Source: a virus. From it: a stretch of DNA of 64,000 nucleotides. The notes under the pieces were generated by a model. It saw only the letters and a program-made list of their open reading frames with translations. It made no database searches and was not told the origin of the DNA. Positions 35,414 to 63,168 of this stretch are shown here, piece after piece; position 1 is the first letter of the stretch; each line of letters starts with the position of its first letter. The stretch is taken from IMG/VR virus record IMGVR_UViG_3300020048_000014, positions 1 through 64,000 of that record; one strand, 5' to 3'. A program made the position numbers and the translations under genes.

Positions 35414-36919
35414 TTAGAAGTTTTTTGCGACACGTTCACGGATCTCACTTAGAGTCTGATCATGTGTCAAAATACCATCAAGAAAAACGGTTTTAAGTTC
35501 GCCTCCAGATTCCTCTTCTTCTGTGCATTGGTCCTTTAAAACATATTCACCATCTATTAGATCAACTCTTAGACGACCTTTGGCAGATTTTTTGAGTCCA
35601 TCGTCTGTGATGGGATCTTTATAAATATCATAACCAACACCATCAACCTGCGCCCATGTCGCTTTAATAGCCATTCCGAGGCAATCACGGGTCAATAGGT
35701 TTAAAGTATAAGACCCCACACCGAATACGATATTATTAGATGCAAATCCTTTTTCTTTAAGACGGGTTAAAATATCAAATGCTCTTTGTTGAGTGATGGA
35801 ATCCCCATAAATTAGGCCCACTCGTTGATTCAGCATCTTATAACCTTGTTCAGATACAGTTCCACCGAAAATTTCCCACAGACATTCGACAGAACCTTTA
35901 TATTCATTACTACCCACGGGAGCAGTTGGATCACCACAAATAATATGAACAGGATTACCACTATCAGGTCTAAACACAACTTTAGCTAACCCAAGTTCAT
36001 TAGGTTGCCGATTTAAAATATCATCTTTAAGGATAGTTGCATACTCTGTGATAACTTTAAAATAGTCATAGGTGTCGCTCACAAGACTAACAATTCCAGT
36101 AGGGTAATGTTTTGTGATAGCATCTCTAAAGAATTCTAATTCTCCCGTCAATGCAGTTCCGAGACTACTCACACTATGTTCCGATGCTGGGACAGATGCT
36201 GCAATAAGTTCTTTATCAGCGTCGGCATTGTAATAATCTTCCAGTAGATCAATAGCTGGAATCGTATCGGTCCCCATAAAGCTTAGAAGGAATGCCGCGC
36301 CATTGATAGCAGAATCATGTCTACCACTCATACCACGAAATTCGAACCCATGTCCTTGAAAACATACCCCATCAGTATTACCAACGGTTTCCATCGCAAA
36401 CTTGTTAAACATTTTACGAAATTCAAATGCAATAGTGGCATTAGTGATAGGTTTCCAAGTTTCACAAGAAATAATAGTTTCAAGATAGTTAGTCAACCAA
36501 GCAAATTTAGGGTGAGTATTGGTGATGGTGAAATAAGGAACTTTAACATTAACCCTGCTACCTTCCGGTAACGCTTTGATACGAATTGGTAGATATCCAA
36601 GATCATGCAGTTCCTCAAATCGGGTCATATCGACGTTATCTTTACCTAGATATGCATCACAACGACGTTTAAATTTCTTAATGACAGTTTCCTTTGGAAG
36701 ATTGAAAAATCCATCATTGTAATCATTAATTAAAAAGTCTATAATGAAGTGTTGCAATCCGAAAATTACAGATTTATCGTCATAAAATTCTTTAAGAACT
36801 GGTAGGTAGCTACTATCTCTGGGTGTTTGGTTGGCATAGATATACTCCGTCAATGGGTCCATGAACCCGTGATGAGATAGTTTATATGCGTCCGTCTGTG
36901 TTAAGGGATTTGTAATCAT
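35414..36919 (-). CDS. nadV: Nicotinamide phosphoribosyltransferase-like protein (possible Namat; start revised)
   Basis: TDAYKLSH, VPASEHSV, VSDTYD, RPDSG, IYGDSIT, FGVGSY, KKSAKG. Confidence 0.92.
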   Translation of the reverse strand: MITNPLTQTDAYKLSHHGFMDPLTEYIYANQTPRDSSYLPVLKEFYDDKSVIFGLQHFIIDFLINDYNDGFFNLPKETVIKKFKRRCDAYLGKDNVDMTRFEELHDLGYLPIRIKALPEGSRVNVKVPYFTITNTHPKFAWLTNYLETIISCETWKPITNATIAFEFRKMFNKFAMETVGNTDGVCFQGHGFEFRGMSGRHDSAINGAAFLLSFMGTDTIPAIDLLEDYYNADADKELIAASVPASEHSVSSLGTALTGELEFFRDAITKHYPTGIVSLVSDTYDYFKVITEYATILKDDILNRQPNELGLAKVVFRPDSGNPVHIICGDPTAPVGSNEYKGSVECLWEIFGGTVSEQGYKMLNQRVGLIYGDSITQQRAFDILTRLKEKGFASNNIVFGVGSYTLNLLTRDCLGMAIKATWAQVDGVGYDIYKDPITDDGLKKSAKGRLRVDLIDGEYVLKDQCTEEEESGGELKTVFLDGILTHDQTLSEIRERVAKNF

Positions 36920-37054
36920 GTTATTTAATTTAATCCTCGCAAAGAGAAACCTTTTTACTAAATGATAGTATGAAGGAAAGAAAATGGACACGAGAAGAAG
37001 AGCAATTTCTTATTGAAAATTATGAATATATGAAAATTATATTTTAGTGTTTTA

Positions 37055-37495
37055 TTATAAAATCTCTAGATTATCTTCGACGAATTTTTTCGTGTTTGTA
37101 TACAACTCTCCTTTAGATCCGATAGCAACATAGTCAGGATAAGCTACATTATCAATTGTTCCTTCCAGAGTATCAATCTCGAATGGTTCAACACCTTCTG
37201 GGATTTCTACTAGTGTGGTAGTAGTCTTTTTAATGTATTGTGAGCGATCTCTAAGTTGCAGTTCATGCACAATCTCATATGTATCTCGAAACACATCAGC
37301 TTTGATTGGATATTCCTTACCATCAGGTTGAATGATGATCAAGTCCTCGTCAGGATTGCTCACAAGAGGCTTGTCTGACCATGCAACCTTAAATTCTTCT
37401 ATGCCGTTGCACGCACGAATCGTTACGGTTGTCTTTTTGCGGACAGTTACACGTTTCCAATCACTTGGAATATCTTCAGTTGTTTTTAGTTTCAT
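37055..37495 (-). CDS. Hypothetical protein with internal duplication
   Basis: 146-aa ORF between the NAD genes. Confidence 0.8.
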   Translation of the reverse strand: MKLKTTEDIPSDWKRVTVRKKTTVTIRACNGIEEFKVAWSDKPLVSNPDEDLIIIQPDGKEYPIKADVFRDTYEIVHELQLRDRSQYIKKTTTTLVEIPEGVEPFEIDTLEGTIDNVAYPDYVAIGSKGELYTNTKKFVEDNLEIL

Positions 37496-38409
37496 AGTTT
37501 AATATCAAAGCAAGTTACTTTACTTGGTAAAAAGGATAGTTCGCCCCAATTACGCTTAGAGTTAGTAGTGTAAAAGTGATCAAAATAGTTTACCATTTTA
37601 TCAAGTCCTTCCATACAGTCATTGTGTGCAGTGAATAACATCAGCTTACCGCAATTCTTTTCTTTTAGTTTTTCACCAAGACCAATGAACGTTCCACCCA
37701 TAGAGGTAATGTCATCAGTAATCAAACATGGATGCCCTTCCAAGTCATCAGCATCAACAAAGAACTCTTTGATACTTCCATCTCGCACATCTCGAATCTT
37801 TTCGCACCGCACAAGATTAAATTGCTTGATCTTAAATGTATTGCTCAAATGCTGAACAATTTTGTTTACTCGTTTTCCAGCTCCTGCATCTGGACAAACA
37901 ATGTTAAAGTGGCGTTCACCTTCACAAGAAGTTATAACTTTCTCCACATATTCCAATTCATCAAGAACAGTAACATTATTAATCAATGCTGGAGTCACTT
38001 CGCTATGAGGGCATAGGATGATCACTTCATCAAATCCACAACCATTAATCATATCAGTAAAGACTTTGATAGTCAATGGTTCACCTTCATTACATACTCG
38101 GTCTTGACGAGCAGCAGGGAAGTATGGTAGAATCAACTTAATGTCCCTAAAGCCCATCCTGCGAGCAGCATCATTAGCGAGAATGATGTCGAATAGATCG
38201 CCAATCTTATTGTATCGTTGAGTAATAATAAGATTGGATTGTGCAGTAAACTCGCATACCGTTGTAATTTGAAAATGTGGTTCTCCGCCCTTGAAGTCAA
38301 ATTTCTTATGATCTAGTCCCACCCCATCCTTGTAGGGTGAGAAGTCTTTATCTAAATTTAAGATATAGGGAAATTCGGATTCAGCTTTCCAGTGAATGTG
38401 TTGACGCAT
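37492..38409 (-). CDS. prs: Ribose-phosphate pyrophosphokinase-like protein (possible Adps)
   Basis: FKGGEPH, LPYFPAARQDRV, CPDAGA, ITDDI..GGTF. Confidence 0.88.
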   Translation of the reverse strand: MRQHIHWKAESEFPYILNLDKDFSPYKDGVGLDHKKFDFKGGEPHFQITTVCEFTAQSNLIITQRYNKIGDLFDIILANDAARRMGFRDIKLILPYFPAARQDRVCNEGEPLTIKVFTDMINGCGFDEVIILCPHSEVTPALINNVTVLDELEYVEKVITSCEGERHFNIVCPDAGAGKRVNKIVQHLSNTFKIKQFNLVRCEKIRDVRDGSIKEFFVDADDLEGHPCLITDDITSMGGTFIGLGEKLKEKNCGKLMLFTAHNDCMEGLDKMVNYFDHFYTTNSKRNWGELSFLPSKVTCFDIKL

Positions 38410-39756: not shown

Positions 39757-39981
39757 TGAAATTGATTTAAAGTTTTGCTAATACGCCAAAAGAGAATTAG
39801 ACCTTACCATTTACGGGGTGTCCTTTTACTATCCACGATGATTTTCCAAAGAATATACGAATCACAGTCAATCACGAACTCATCATATATAGTGGAACAT
39901 TTCCACTGTCTTAGGAACGCTTCGCTCTACTTATTTTAAGCGATTGCTGCTTCTAAGCCAACGCCCTTTAAATCAATTTCA
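39757..39981 (-). ncRNA. Candidate ncRNA containing a 23S rRNA H43/H44 (L11-binding) mimic
   Basis: 16-bp perfect terminal inverted repeat; GTTGGCTTAGAAGCAGC at 39962-39946; H44-like gagttcgtgattgact at 39881-39866. Confidence 0.7.
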
Positions 39982-40553: not shown

Positions 40554-41225
40554 TTATCGTATCGTGGAATCGTGGTGATCCAGTATATTGACTGATTTGG
40601 TGGACATCACATCCTCAATGTCATCGAATGACCATATCTTACCACAGTCGATTCCAATGTCAAGTGTTTTTCCGAGTGGGAATTCTGGTAGTCTCTCAGG
40701 ATCGGATAGATGACTATGGCCGCTCAAATGAATAGTTCTTCTATTTGAGCCATTCCAAATCTTGCATGGGAAATGGTTCATAACAATCCGTTGTTTCCCA
40801 ACTTGAATTTCTACATGATTTCCAACAAATGTTAGATTAGGAATTCTTTTAAAGTTAGCGGGGTAAAGTTCGCCACAACACCCCAAACTTTTGGCAAGTT
40901 CTTCTTTATAGATGCGGTATGTATTCGACTCATGATTGCCCCAGAGTGCTCTAATGTCTTTACATTTTATACAGTGCAACCATTCTACACATTTTTCATC
41001 TGTAGCATTTAAAAACATGTCACCGAGAAAATATAAAATCGCATTCTCTGGGACAGTATCATTGATCAAATTCTGAATCTTAATCGCAGCATCTTCTGCT
41101 GAAGTATATCCACGCTGTTTCCAAATCGGAACAGCCCAAGAAGATGGATCATGGAAAATATGCCAGTCGCTACTAAAATAGAGCTTGTGTCTATCTTCGT
41201 GTTTAAATTTCTCGATTTTATACAT
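40554..41225 (-). CDS. Calcineurin-like metallophosphoesterase
   Basis: SDWH, LGD, GNHE, GHSH. Confidence 0.88.
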   Translation of the reverse strand: MYKIEKFKHEDRHKLYFSSDWHIFHDPSSWAVPIWKQRGYTSAEDAAIKIQNLINDTVPENAILYFLGDMFLNATDEKCVEWLHCIKCKDIRALWGNHESNTYRIYKEELAKSLGCCGELYPANFKRIPNLTFVGNHVEIQVGKQRIVMNHFPCKIWNGSNRRTIHLSGHSHLSDPERLPEFPLGKTLDIGIDCGKIWSFDDIEDVMSTKSVNILDHHDSTIR

Positions 41226-41477: not shown

Positions 41478-42560
41478 TTATAAATTACTTTCGATACCAG
41501 TTTTGATTACTTTATCCTCCAATACTTTATTGTCCAAGATAGTAAAGGCGGCACCTTTTCTCCAATCAGGAAAATGTTGAACAATTTCCATGGCTTGATC
41601 CTTTCGGGTGAATGAATCTCCTCGCACATTATGCACTACTAGACGCACTTTGTCAAGTTGTTCTAAAGTTTTATTATAAGCATTGACAATTTTAAGCATG
41701 TCATCCTTTAGTCTTTCGGCAACTTCGAAATCTATTGCAACTTCGATGTATTTATAGAAATCCTCATACTTGGTGAATCGTTCAGTAGTCATGAATAGAT
41801 CAACAACTTGATTGATATTCTTGATACCAGTGCAAATTTTATGCAATTCACAATATTCACTGGCTTTTATCTTCTTCAAGGTTTGACCATCTGGCGAATA
41901 TAGAACAACGCCTTCCTTACCTCTCCAAGCAGCAACGTCATTGAGACATTCTTCGATGGAATCATACTCATACTTTTGAGGACGCTTAAAACCATATTGT
42001 CTACCTATTACATCCAAATAATTTTGGGGATAATATGAACAATCAGCATTTGAAACCGCACCCACTAAGATCAAATCAGGTTCATTAGATTCTCTCAATA
42101 CTATGATATTGTTGGGAGTGACCCACTCAAACAACCAAGTTACCCCAACTGCTTCAGAAAAATCTTTTTGTTCATTGAAAAAATATATATACTTCAATAG
42201 TAAAGTATCGATTTCATGACCATTAGCCATTTGACGAGCATCAGTAGTTCCACGGGTTCTACAAATCCATGAACCCTTATATCTTGATACAATCAATAAC
42301 GATCCATCCAACTTATGACGAGCATCGATCTTCCACGACTTATCCCAAGGTTGAAAATCGGGTTGTTCACTGAAATTAGTAAACTTTAAAAATCCTTGTG
42401 ATACCACAAAATTATCAGACTTACGGAGAATACAAGAACGGAATCTTGCATTTTCATCATTCCACTTACATCCGACATGATTCGGAGTGATAAGCCAGCA
42501 ATCATCTCCTGCGATAACGCAGTCTTTGAAAGTGAATTCTTCAGTCGTTGGTAGCTTCAT
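41478..42560 (-). CDS. T4 Rnl1-like RNA ligase
   Basis: KFTNFSE, KLDGSL (motif I), FEWV, EGVV, KIKASEY. Confidence 0.82.
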   Translation of the reverse strand: MKLPTTEEFTFKDCVIAGDDCWLITPNHVGCKWNDENARFRSCILRKSDNFVVSQGFLKFTNFSEQPDFQPWDKSWKIDARHKLDGSLLIVSRYKGSWICRTRGTTDARQMANGHEIDTLLLKYIYFFNEQKDFSEAVGVTWLFEWVTPNNIIVLRESNEPDLILVGAVSNADCSYYPQNYLDVIGRQYGFKRPQKYEYDSIEECLNDVAAWRGKEGVVLYSPDGQTLKKIKASEYCELHKICTGIKNINQVVDLFMTTERFTKYEDFYKYIEVAIDFEVAERLKDDMLKIVNAYNKTLEQLDKVRLVVHNVRGDSFTRKDQAMEIVQHFPDWRKGAAFTILDNKVLEDKVIKTGIESNL

Positions 42561-46905: not shown

Positions 46906-48297
46906 TTAACTTTCTTCTTCCATGTCAGATTCTCCAGCATCCCTAGCTTTACATTCTGCTAAATTGAATTTCGGACTCTTAAATTTAAGAACTGGCTTAG
47001 TTTCCTTAGAATTGATTTTCAAAACAATACCTTCGTTGACGACACCCGTTTTGCAGAGTTCGCATGTTTTATCAAGATACTTTTCATGTAACTTGTGAAG
47101 AAAGTTCTCTCCAAATGAACTATCTAGGGGAATTTCAGGGAATAAATCCGTTACCTTTCCTTTGTAGTATACCGGGACATGTTTTAAACCATGATCTTCA
47201 CAGAATCCTTCAATTTCATTCCAAGAAAATTCAGTCACTTTTCCTTCTTCATTGGTGTGTGTGACTCTATAAACCCAAAATTCTGATTCGCCTTGAGTTA
47301 TCCCATAATCATAATTCTTCTGGATATTCCTATTAGGGGAGGCCCACCCTAAAATTTCTCCATATACTGAAATTCCTTTAGGGATATTACCATCCAATTC
47401 TTTAGCGTGTTTACCCCAAACGTCTTCACTATATGTCCCATCACGTTTATTTTTGATGATCGAACGACTGGAATATACAAAGAGATAATCAATCGCTGGA
47501 ATGTCAAACCCAATCATTTTTTTAAACATTGAAAATAATGACAACGATTTCTTGCACAGCAGATTAGCAAAAATTGCCGATGTTCCATGAATTTTGTTAG
47601 AGATTGTGATATTATCATTTGGATCGACGATAAAAATATTACGACCAAGTTGTTCAGTTTTCCCGTGGAAATACCACTGACCGTCAACAATTTGAGATTT
47701 GATACCCTCAGATTTAATAGCACCGTAATACCATTTGACGACAGGATAGATAGCCAATCTAATTGGTCTAGGAAGGCTACCAATGCTCTTGGATACCCAT
47801 TTAGGGATCTTGGGTTGTTTGCTATTCGGATCACCTTGAACTTTTGTATCTGGTCGGATATACTTCGTTACAAGAAGGTCATCACCAACTGTATCAAAAT
47901 TTTCCCCGACATGGAAGATATCATCCTTTAAGTCATAATATCTAATAAGTTCTGAAACTTTAAATAAAAATCCCTGAGACGGAACACCACGTAAATTAAT
48001 TGCCTTAACTCTTCGTCCTTTAGAAGAGAAGTAAGATTTTGTTACACCATCAGCATTCAACACGGGATCATTAAAAAGATTTGCCCATGACAAGAATTTG
48101 GCGGATAAACAAGACTCAATAGGGAAATACGCCAACTTATCATTTTGGGAATATACTCCTTTCCCGACAATAATACTATTTCCAAAAATTTCAACGATTT
48201 CTAATCTGTCAGCAGATGGATGAGTTTTAATTTCTGGACACTTGATTACGACTGCTGCGTAATTTGGGTCACAATTTTCACTTATGCTCAATTTCAT
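46906..48297 (-). CDS. Second RNA ligase-like protein (Rnl2/DRB0094 type, N-terminal OB-like domain)
   Basis: HPSADRLE, KIHGTS, GEILG, EGIV, KFKS. Confidence 0.78.
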   Translation of the reverse strand: MKLSISENCDPNYAAVVIKCPEIKTHPSADRLEIVEIFGNSIIVGKGVYSQNDKLAYFPIESCLSAKFLSWANLFNDPVLNADGVTKSYFSSKGRRVKAINLRGVPSQGFLFKVSELIRYYDLKDDIFHVGENFDTVGDDLLVTKYIRPDTKVQGDPNSKQPKIPKWVSKSIGSLPRPIRLAIYPVVKWYYGAIKSEGIKSQIVDGQWYFHGKTEQLGRNIFIVDPNDNITISNKIHGTSAIFANLLCKKSLSLFSMFKKMIGFDIPAIDYLFVYSSRSIIKNKRDGTYSEDVWGKHAKELDGNIPKGISVYGEILGWASPNRNIQKNYDYGITQGESEFWVYRVTHTNEEGKVTEFSWNEIEGFCEDHGLKHVPVYYKGKVTDLFPEIPLDSSFGENFLHKLHEKYLDKTCELCKTGVVNEGIVLKINSKETKPVLKFKSPKFNLAECKARDAGESDMEEES

Positions 48298-58639: not shown

Positions 58640-59698
58640 TCAAGCCTTGATTGTTCGACCAAGGGTGGAAATATTTGCAACACCATTGTTGATGTAAACT
58701 TGTTCGACTCCAAAAGTTTCTTCAGAAAGTGAAACAATATTAAATCCTTGTTGCCAGTTACAAGCGGTTCCATATAATGCATTTAAATCACATAAGCACC
58801 CACTCTCAATTCCTATCAATTGTCTCTCTCCTCGTCCAGCAATATCTGGAATTCTCTTACAACTGGAACCAATTCTATGGGTATGGCCATGCATAATGCT
58901 CGCACCCCATTTATTAATCTCTCCCAAACATGATGCCCCACCATTACCACGAACAGTTTCACCATGGGTAACAATAAGACCATTGAGGTTTACATAATCC
59001 ACATGTTCGATCTTGTGTTGATAATCTCCCATGAAAACATTTTCATATGAGAGAATTTCTGCAATATTCGAAAGACTAGAAAGTTCACCAATCCGATCAG
59101 ATAAATAACGTCTCCATCTGCCACCAATACTTTGACCGCTATGATTGCTGACAGTTTCATATATTTTTGCACCATCTGCGACTCCAATGAGTTCATCTAA
59201 AAATGCGTGATAATCTTCTCTTTCGGATTGCAGTGACCAACTTTTCTTCAAGTCTTTTGGATATTTAGAAATAGCCAAGAAGTCCATTGTGTCCCCATTA
59301 AGAATGATTGTTTTTGGTTTTAATTGAAAAATAGTCTCCAAGAAAATATCAATAGCCTTTTGATCATGGCAACCAAAGTGAAAATCTGATCCAACTACTG
59401 CATAGTCATTTAGGGTCGCAGTCGATTCATTATCGTATCGAGGAGATACTTTTATCGGTGCTAATTGAGCAAGGAATTCTAAAACTTCATCTTCCGTCTT
59501 TTTGAATCGTGTTGGCTTATCCCTCTGTAAATTATCATTACTATACCCAACGATAGTTGGCTCGACATTTAGTTCATCTAAATAACGGTTATACCATCCT
59601 TGAGCGGTTGACTTAGCTACTCCAAAATCTTCATAAATTTGGGAATAAGTCATACCATTTAATCTGCTGTTTACTACTTGTTCTTTAACACTACTCAT
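58640..59698 (-). CDS. Metallophosphoesterase with N-terminal HTH
   Basis: GSDFH, NGD, SNH, THG, GHTH. Confidence 0.82.
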   Translation of the reverse strand: MSSVKEQVVNSRLNGMTYSQIYEDFGVAKSTAQGWYNRYLDELNVEPTIVGYSNDNLQRDKPTRFKKTEDEVLEFLAQLAPIKVSPRYDNESTATLNDYAVVGSDFHFGCHDQKAIDIFLETIFQLKPKTIILNGDTMDFLAISKYPKDLKKSWSLQSEREDYHAFLDELIGVADGAKIYETVSNHSGQSIGGRWRRYLSDRIGELSSLSNIAEILSYENVFMGDYQHKIEHVDYVNLNGLIVTHGETVRGNGGASCLGEINKWGASIMHGHTHRIGSSCKRIPDIAGRGERQLIGIESGCLCDLNALYGTACNWQQGFNIVSLSEETFGVEQVYINNGVANISTLGRTIKA

Positions 59699-62373: not shown

Positions 62374-63168
62374 TTATAAAATATTATTAGGTGAAGCTGA
62401 TTGTTTTGAGATTATGTTTGCATTTCTATTCATTCTTGTAACCACGCCATCAGATTTTTTAATACTTCTTTGTAGATATTCTTTATGATTCAGATATTCT
62501 TTTGCTGCTTGTTTAAATTTATTATTTTTTATAGACAACACAAAATCGAAATCTTTTTTTGATTTTGGATCAAACAAATCACCTCTATAACATATATCAA
62601 CTAAAACTTTTTTTAAGTCTGGTGAAAACGTTTCCCATTGGGTTGGAAATTTAGATTTGGCGAGGTTTAAATGTTTCAATAAATCTTTATTAAACATAGA
62701 TTTTACTTGATTGATATTAAGTTCATTTCCATATTTAGATACAAATAAATTTTTATCTCGATTCGAACCATTACCTATTAGGTGTCCTATTCCTATAGTC
62801 CATAATCCCTTATCATCTTTGTAAGGAGAGAAGAATTTTTTATTCTGAGGTGATGCTAAATTACTTCCAATTATCTCACTAGGAATAATGTATTCTGCGA
62901 TATCGTTGATATCGATATTCGTATCTTTTTTTGGGGTTTCTTCAGTTTTATACAACTCCATTAATTTGGCATATGCTTGATCAAATGATAAATTAGGTTT
63001 GACTTTTTTAGCCTGTGACAATGCCTCTATTTTTTGTTGAATAGGTTCTGGTCTTTTTTCTAATTGTTTCATGACATAATCAGCCTCGTATGCCATTGCG
63101 CCTAAAGAAAATAATGACATCATTATTTCCTTAACTCCTTCATCAAAAATTAATAAATCTTCTTTCAT
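62374..63168 (-). CDS. Lysozyme-domain protein (GH24-like)
   Basis: Y.DDKGLWTIGIGHL catalytic-loop pattern. Confidence 0.75.
   Translation of the reverse strand: MKEDLLIFDEGVKEIMMSLFSLGAMAYEADYVMKQLEKRPEPIQQKIEALSQAKKVKPNLSFDQAYAKLMELYKTEETPKKDTNIDINDIAEYIIPSEIIGSNLASPQNKKFFSPYKDDKGLWTIGIGHLIGNGSNRDKNLFVSKYGNELNINQVKSMFNKDLLKHLNLAKSKFPTQWETFSPDLKKVLVDICYRGDLFDPKSKKDFDFVLSIKNNKFKQAAKEYLNHKEYLQRSIKKSDGVVTRMNRNANIISKQSASPNNIL

Follow-up and report, generated by a model that had tools for sequence, protein, structure and literature searches.

What a copy of part of the 23S rRNA does in a phage genome, directly beside a tRNA gene, is the question raised by this locus. The stretch of DNA that we analysed, called the window below, is 64,000 nt long and covers positions 1 to 64,000 of the IMG/VR record IMGVR_UViG_3300020048_000014. 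The genome belongs to a large freshwater T4-like phage (196.7 kb, 34% GC) that carries rIIA/rIIB and ten tRNA genes and is distant from cultured phages. A first-pass annotation of the window had proposed that the locus encodes an RNA imitating the GTPase-associated centre (GAC) of the ribosome, with helices H43 and H44.

Anatomy of the element and comparison with 23S rRNA

The element is a 225-nt candidate non-coding RNA on the minus strand (39981-39757), directly 5′ of a tRNA gene. The stop codon of the upstream ORF lies 7 nt before the closing stem of the element. On the other side, tRNA-Thr(UGU), detected by ARAGORN at 39751-39677 on the minus strand (51.9 bits with the Rfam tRNA model), follows after the 5-nt gap that the first-pass annotation had given, and it is the probable processing partner of the element. 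When promoters and terminators were looked for near the element, nothing exceeded the shuffle background. From 5′ to 3′, the element consists of UGAAAUUGAUUUAAAG (16 nt), G, GC, GUUGGCUUAGAAGCAGC, AAUC, GC, UUAAA, AUAAGU, and a long insert, followed by UUUG, GCGUAUUAGC, AAAA, and the complementary 16-nt strand.

Direct comparison with the 23S rRNA of Salmonella showed that the 17-mer GTTGGCTTAGAAGCAGC (39962-39946, minus strand) is identical to positions 1059-1075 (G1059-C1075), as the first-pass annotation had stated. It occurs only once in the 196.7-kb genome, and its chance expectation is about 7.5e-6 in 128 kb of two-strand sequence. G1056 and the H43 look-alike (G1057-C1081) together occupy 39965-39940; the 1059-1075 sequence and the 9-nt loop are present, and C1076 is A here. 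In the pairs that flank the 17-mer, G-C stands for A1057-U1081 and C-G for U1058-A1080, and the comparison with Salmonella bore out these previously noted compensatory exchanges. UUAAA (39939-39935) corresponds to U1082-A1086, the junction triloop and partner of G1056 in a tertiary triple; the triple 1056/1082/1086 is G/U/A in the window. According to both the 23S and the family comparison, AUAAGU (39934-39929) is a divergent form of G1087-A-G-U1090, with two extra bases and G1087 lost. The closing stem, which stands in for H42, is indeed the perfect 16-bp helix described before; it is A/U-rich and pairs 39981-39966 with 39772-39757.

The 3′ half had to be reinterpreted. The first-pass annotation had placed H44 at GAGTTCGTGATTGACT (39881-39866), behind a 53-nt insert and with U-A replacing G1091-C1100. 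However, that place falls in an unconserved variable arm and showed no conservation across the aligned relatives (alignment A1, see below). The true H44 look-alike is GCGTATTAGC at 39786-39777, directly 5′ of the 3′ strand of the closing stem. It has nine of the ten bases of 1091-1100, with U for A1096, and a 6-nt loop; G1091-C1100 and C1092-G1099 are both kept, and the U-A change does not exist. AAAA (39776-39773) replaces A1101-C1102-A1103 of the family, C1102 being lost and one base being added.

The actual insert lies between 1090 and 1091 and is 138 nt in length (39928-39791). It is composed of a 4-bp helix AGAG/CUCU (39928-39925 with 39794-39791), supported by covariation and pairing, a variable arm (39924-39823), and a conserved domain (39822-39800). 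The variable arm starts with a GCGAAGC motif common to part of the subfamily; it has no column conservation in alignment A1, and its fold is a prediction only. The conserved domain is the hairpin GA-CACCCC-G-UAAA-U-GGUAAGG-UC, which has a GNRA/UAAM-type tetraloop and a short helix on its flanks. The linker UUUG (39790-39787), which leads to H44, is family-specific and absent from rRNA, and each of its positions is kept in 75-80 of 86 members.

The Rfam bacterial LSU model, which had been suggested as a check, gave a weak local match on H43 (model positions 1096-1145; 11.3 bits, E = 0.31), below the gathering score. Apart from tRNA, no Rfam 15 family was matched at the gathering score. The unconstrained minimum free energy fold mispairs H43 with the insert at −55.9 kcal/mol, compared with −47.3 kcal/mol for the covariation-supported model. 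Thermodynamic prediction alone is therefore misleading here.

A family of phage RNAs with a split architecture

A search of phage genomes for the motif outside rRNA operons and a test of covariation had been recommended in the first-pass annotation. Both were carried out, and they revealed a large non-rRNA family with conserved pairing. A scan of viral contigs for the exact 17-mer gave at least 118 loci, nearly all of them non-rRNA. Nearly all of the matches listed have a GCGUAAYAGC block 60-350 nt downstream of the 17-mer, and in these matches ACAC comes next, and then a strand that can pair with the sequence immediately 5′ of the GG preceding H43. In E. coli numbering, the 5′ half of the family architecture comprises the closing helix in place of H42, G1055, R1056, H43, UUAAA (1082-1086), and GAGU (1087-1090), and the 3′ half comprises the insert, UUUG, H44 (1091-1100), ACAC (1101-1104), and the closing helix. 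More than 130 non-redundant phage loci with this split architecture were found, and their inserts, 60-350 nt in length, are very different in sequence between members.

For the pairing counts, 50-86 non-redundant members were used, with the conserved blocks as anchors; this first sample had been chosen by the exact 17-mer. A second sample, independent of the 17-mer, was drawn with the 3′ signature UUUGGCGUAAYAGCACAC, which is absent from rRNA. An H43 look-alike was present upstream in 99 of its 104 non-redundant loci, and only 41 loci had the exact 17-mer. Furthermore, 22 other members supplied the phage-specific 3′ portion (insert hairpin domain, UUUG, H44, and ACAC) for a covariance model (R1) that contained neither the 17-mer nor the window. 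In this leave-one-out comparison, R1 matched the window at 39848-39773 with 75.2 bits (E ~1e-23). There was also a weak second match of 21 bits at 63088-63145 (minus strand), containing UUUAGGCGCAAUGGCAUAC; it coincides with a gene start, has no H43 partner upstream, and is probably due to chance.

Of 89 members, 26 have the insert hairpin domain, among them Pseudomonas phage pf16 and Aeromonas phage 4_4572, and we infer a role in tertiary docking for it. A 27th regex match, in L101, proved not to be a true match. Two viral contigs with 27-28% GC, L105 (1739-1842, plus strand) and L048, carry a compact, insert-less, free-standing H42-H44 arm of 104 nt. This type keeps the UUAGACAAC region of H42 and has no tRNA in its locus. 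On the bacterial LSU model, L105 scored 72 bits (E = 2e-21) over H42-H44, which ties the family to this rRNA domain by homology; the compact type may be the ancestral form. A minority class of members, for example L023, L057, L088, L115, and L111, has UAAU or AUAAU at the junction (A1086 changed to U) and an H43 3′ strand shorter by one base, which suggests an alternative junction geometry.

Several cultured phages carry the element, unannotated at the site in each case: Cronobacter phage GAP32, Pectobacterium phage CBB, Serratia phage BF, Yersinia phage fHe-Yen9-04, several Erwinia pEa_SNUABM phages, Xanthomonas phages XacN1, XbC2, and XaC1, Pseudomonas phages pf16, Milchi, Astolliot, and UNO-G1W1, and Aeromonas phage 4_4572. 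In a collection of about 185,000 prokaryote species genomes, only 44 contigs contain the 3′ signature, and 28 of them have both halves. These contigs are mostly from metagenome-assembled genomes or gut Clostridia isolates and are taken to be prophages or mis-binned phage. Neither Rfam 15 nor the freely accessible full-text literature that was searched contained a description of this RNA family; we found it in no database or paper.

Selection on the GAC fold

Pairing was maintained in the family through changes of both bases. Positions 1057 and 1081 are paired in 49 of 50 members (AU 42, CG 6, GC 1) and positions 1058 and 1080 in all 50 (UA 24, GC 16, AU 8, CG 2), compared with 8-30 of 50 in shifted registers. 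The first five pairs of the closing helix are formed in 71-80 of 86 members and include all four Watson-Crick types, with shifted registers giving mostly 22-40 of 86. At the base of the insert helix, 44-49 of 50 members are paired family-wide by several pair types; all four pairs are 100% paired in the subfamily of the window, with changes on both sides. The triple 1056/1082/1086 is G/U/A in 24 of 50 members and A/C/G in 17. Because this triple covaries, selection acts on the tertiary fold and not on the helices alone.

Alignment A1 consisted of 15 members sharing the insert domain of the window. Unaided, RNAalifold predicted the closing helix, H43, H44, and an insert hairpin from this alignment. 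With an explicit GAC-numbered structure, 94.5% of the cells in A1 were paired, whereas sliding the register always gave at most 53%. In fourteen pairs both partners change, and none of 500 shuffles reached the observed covariation score; in the closing helix, six of seven pairs change on both sides. The stem pair beside the loop of the insert hairpin also covaries (GU/GC/AU/UA).

Conservation of single bases was examined in the sample drawn without the 17-mer. G1059, U1060, G1063, U1066, G1071, and C1072 were invariant (97/97), whereas U1061 (74/97), A1067 (82/97, 85%), G1068 (79/97), and A1070 (82/97) varied. In addition, A1095 is kept in 84 of 86 members, and the position of U1101 is A in 80 of 86. 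Binding of uL11 requires the tertiary fold of the GAC, which is an autonomous folding unit, and rRNAs likewise show no conservation at position 1061 (PMC6239185). The invariance of the fold-forming bases together with the variability at 1061, 1067, 1068, and 1070 suggests that selection acts on the fold and the uL11 surface, and the base counts point to weaker selection on A1067, the adenine contacted by factors and thiostrepton. Taken together, these findings show that the element reproduces the GAC fold as a structured RNA under selection outside rRNA, and that it belongs to a large phage RNA family. The earlier proposal of a selected structure rather than a stray scrap of rRNA is accordingly upheld by the strong covariation, the lack of rRNA in the genome, and the size of the phage family.

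Divergence of the window copy

The copy in the window is the most divergent at the junction (C1076A, two additional bases with G1087 lost, C1102 lost, one additional A, and A1096U). The change of C1076 to A creates a G-A opposition that is common to about a tenth of the members. In contrast, the forms AUAAGU for GAGU and AAAAC for ACAC, together with U for A1096, set the window apart: in the family, GAGU is present in 49 of 50 members, A1088 in 49 of 50, and G1087-C1102 as G-C in 46 of 50, so that the window is an outlier. G1087-C1102 is not kept as such, and one alignment of AUAAGU with AAAA could give a U-A replacement. Exact-pattern scans found no relatives with the odd junction of the window. 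Since the divergent junction is unmatched in relatives, the affinity of this particular RNA for uL11 could be reduced.

Genomic context

A tRNA on the same strand lies within 200 nt of 60 of the 133 non-redundant family elements, and all 275 tRNAs within 1 kb of family elements are co-oriented with the element. About 40% of the members have no tRNA within 1 kb. Most abutting tRNAs begin 9-22 nt downstream of C1104 or stop 5-16 nt upstream of G1055, which is about the length of the closing strand, and the pf16 element is located between tRNA-Asn and tRNA-Pro. The element thus behaves like an extra unit of the tRNA array, and this speaks for joint transcription and for release through tRNA processing. 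The first-pass annotation had suggested such a release for the window, and the tight, co-oriented abutment seen family-wide strengthens this suggestion.

In L251 (2720-2860), a phage that is syntenic here and encodes a homologue of the upstream ORF with 62% identity, both the RNA and tRNA-Thr are missing. Therefore, the unit is accessory, dispensable in that lineage, and patchily distributed. In the main tRNA cluster of the present genome, the gap between tRNA-Asn and tRNA-Pro (193958-194407, outside the window), in which pf16 has the RNA, holds an ORF for an HNH endonuclease instead of a second RNA copy. No genes for uL11, L7/L12, or RelA/SpoT, which could have hinted at a partner of the RNA, were found in the phage genome.

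Two RNA ligases, one of them Rnl1-type, and two phosphoesterases are encoded in the window within about 20 kb (41478-42560, 46906-48297, 40554-41225, and 58640-59698, all on the minus strand). They adjoin PRPP synthetase and NAMPT genes (35414-38409) and form an RNA-repair and NAD-salvage neighbourhood. Outside the window, a tRNA with the anticodon CUA, an amber suppressor, is present at 193136-193210. Of 219 long ORFs, only 14 have TAG as their stop codon, and reading through TAG does not lengthen ORFs unusually, which gives no sign of genome-wide recoding. A link to amber suppression via uL11 and RF1 was considered and rejected, because there is no TAG recoding here and only 7 of 134 family loci, a count that has no baseline, contain suppressor tRNAs.

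Possible functions of the RNA

We propose that the RNA would be transcribed with its neighbours and freed by the tRNA-processing machinery, RNase P cutting at tRNA-Thr, 5 nt downstream. Its two ends join to give a self-closed copy of the GAC, consisting of the 16-bp stem in place of H42, H43, the 1082-1086 loop, and H44. The 138-nt insert projects between 1090 and 1091 with its conserved tetraloop hairpin domain and its variable arm. Such an RNA probably imitates this ribosomal site away from the ribosome. As for its partner, we lean slightly towards host uL11: the released, stable RNA may bind uL11 off the ribosome and would then be a decoy or sink for that site. Lower occupancy of uL11 on ribosomes and weakened RelA activation or RF1 termination would be possible results. 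In an alternative role, the RNA might be a false target for whatever recognises the folded centre. The wider proposal, in which large phages of many hosts use a trans-acting copy of the GAC to titrate uL11 or another recogniser during infection and thereby shut down host responses that depend on uL11, for instance stringent control through RelA, or shield ribosomes against an attack on the GAC, is put forward only tentatively. By comparison, uL10 is an unlikely partner, since the free-sequence helix replaces H42: in the window it is a perfect 16-bp stem without the internal loops of H42 (the UUAGACAAC region), a feature of the uL10 site that only the compact L105 type has kept.

Besides uL11 binding, contact with translation factors was considered. 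The free RNA, alone or with uL11, might bind EF-G, the EF-Tu ternary complex, IF2, RF3, or release factors via the A1067 and A1095 loops and so tune translation. Both loops are largely kept, and the counts for A1095 (84/86) and A1067 (85%) are also compatible with a factor-contact role. EF-G was reportedly found to bind isolated GAC and sarcin-ricin loop (SRL) oligonucleotides by Munishkin and Wool in 1997. Moreover, 2 of 89 members have an SRL-like hairpin, AGUACG(A/G)GAGGAA, in the insert; it fits the SRL consensus and would supply the second half of the factor site. However, such hairpins are rare, chance would give 1.4 matches when equally many mismatches are allowed, and none is present in the window; SRL mimicry (AGUA-C-GNRA-G-GAA) was accordingly rejected as a family trait. 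In addition, A1067, G1068, and A1070 vary in 15-19% of the members while the fold-forming bases are invariant, which weakens a pure factor-contact role, and we regard binding of factors as an unlikely function. In the two members with SRL-like hairpins, L101 and L029, the two halves of the ribosomal GTPase-binding site may be united; L101 lies in an array of 27 tRNA genes.

Less probable still is that the RNA soaks up an agent, from the host or from a competitor, attacking the GAC, such as a defence nuclease, a modifying enzyme, or thiopeptides that bind in the uL11-RNA cleft, and in this way protects the ribosomes. In favour of such a false target, the RNA reproduces the whole recognisable surface, with the fold and both loops. 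Genes for RNA repair also adjoin the element in places: an Rnl1-type RNA ligase and a phosphoesterase lie 1.5 kb away in the window, and a 2′-5′ RNA ligase lies next to the element of XacN1. Nevertheless, homologues of the ligases and phosphoesterases of the window were found near only 0-1 of 133 members, and a linkage of the family to RNA repair was rejected on this ground. We know of no anti-phage toxin directed at the GAC, and none was found in the literature that was searched.

The great variation of the inserts in length (60-350 nt) and sequence would agree with a scaffold, in which the GAC fold is a tough handle protected by uL11 and the variable arm does the work, for example as a phage-specific antisense or protein-binding element. 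The existence of the module without an insert was also counted in favour of this arrangement. On the other hand, it is the core and not the arm that is conserved across hosts and habitats, and the insert-less members show that the core suffices; hence, we consider a scaffold improbable. Even less credible is a processing or insulator unit of the tRNA operon, which would aid RNase P, E, or Z or block exonucleases and would have no role in trans. The tight, co-oriented abutment of tRNAs fits this explanation, but it leaves the conserved tertiary triple of the GAC and the invariant fold bases unexplained, about 40% of the members have no tRNA within 1 kb, and the compact members have none in the locus. 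Finally, a neutral scrap of host rRNA or a chimeric assembly, the objection foreseen in the first-pass annotation, is refuted despite the identity of the 17-mer to 23S rRNA and the few matches in the viral collection that are real rRNA (L109, L120, and Paenibacillus phage Pd_22F), because there is no rRNA match anywhere in the 196.7-kb genome, the flanks are non-rRNA, a 138-nt insert splits the domain within a 16-bp closing stem, and the extensively covarying architecture recurs in more than 130 loci.

Sequestration of uL11 remains the preferred reading. If the RNA binds uL11 or translation factors, phages would have a new means of disturbing the control of translation, the stringent response, or defences aimed at the ribosome. 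Mimics of tRNA or promoter DNA are already known among viral and bacterial RNAs, and some mRNA leaders imitate ribosomal-protein sites in cis. To our knowledge, no virus is known to encode a functional centre of rRNA as a free-standing copy, and a viral decoy of such a site, if true, would be a mechanism not described before. The family is testable in cultured phages with tractable hosts (pf16, GAP32, XacN1, 4_4572, and Serratia phage BF), and its natural variants of the GAC fold, with the insertion points that they tolerate, are of use in studies of RNA folding and engineering.

Comparison with known systems

Stable non-tRNA RNAs located in a tRNA cluster are known from phage T4 as species 1 and 2 RNAs (rnaC/rnaD). 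Like these RNAs and like ROOL and GOLLD, the present element is phage-encoded and co-oriented beside tRNA genes, and release by tRNA processing is presumed. However, it shares no sequence or structural likeness with them; ROOL and GOLLD are in Rfam and do not match the element, and T4 is not among the phage matches.

The rplJ/L10 leader (Rfam L10_leader) resembles the element in being a non-ribosomal RNA that imitates the site of a ribosomal protein on rRNA. Such leaders mimic the site of uL10 and act on their downstream mRNA in cis, whereas the phage element precedes a tRNA, has tRNAs as neighbours across the family, follows the uL11 domain in nearly every base, and has no match among the Rfam leaders.

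The element can also be compared with the GAC of 23S rRNA itself (top of H42, H43, and H44; E. coli 1051-1108), known as the 58-60-nt uL11/thiostrepton domain and among the best-characterised RNA-protein systems. The phage RNA differs from it in lying outside any rRNA gene, in having a free-sequence helix for H42, and in the insert of 60-350 nt with UUUG between 1090 and 1091. Further differences are A for U1101 in 80 of 86 members, the conservation of A1067 at 85%, and, in the window copy, the lack of G1087-C1102 as such. In common with the ribosomal domain, it has an identical 1059-1075 segment of H43 flanked by compensated pairs, the UUAAA junction loop with a covarying triple, and an H44 hairpin with GC/GC pairs and a G-U-A-N-N-A loop.
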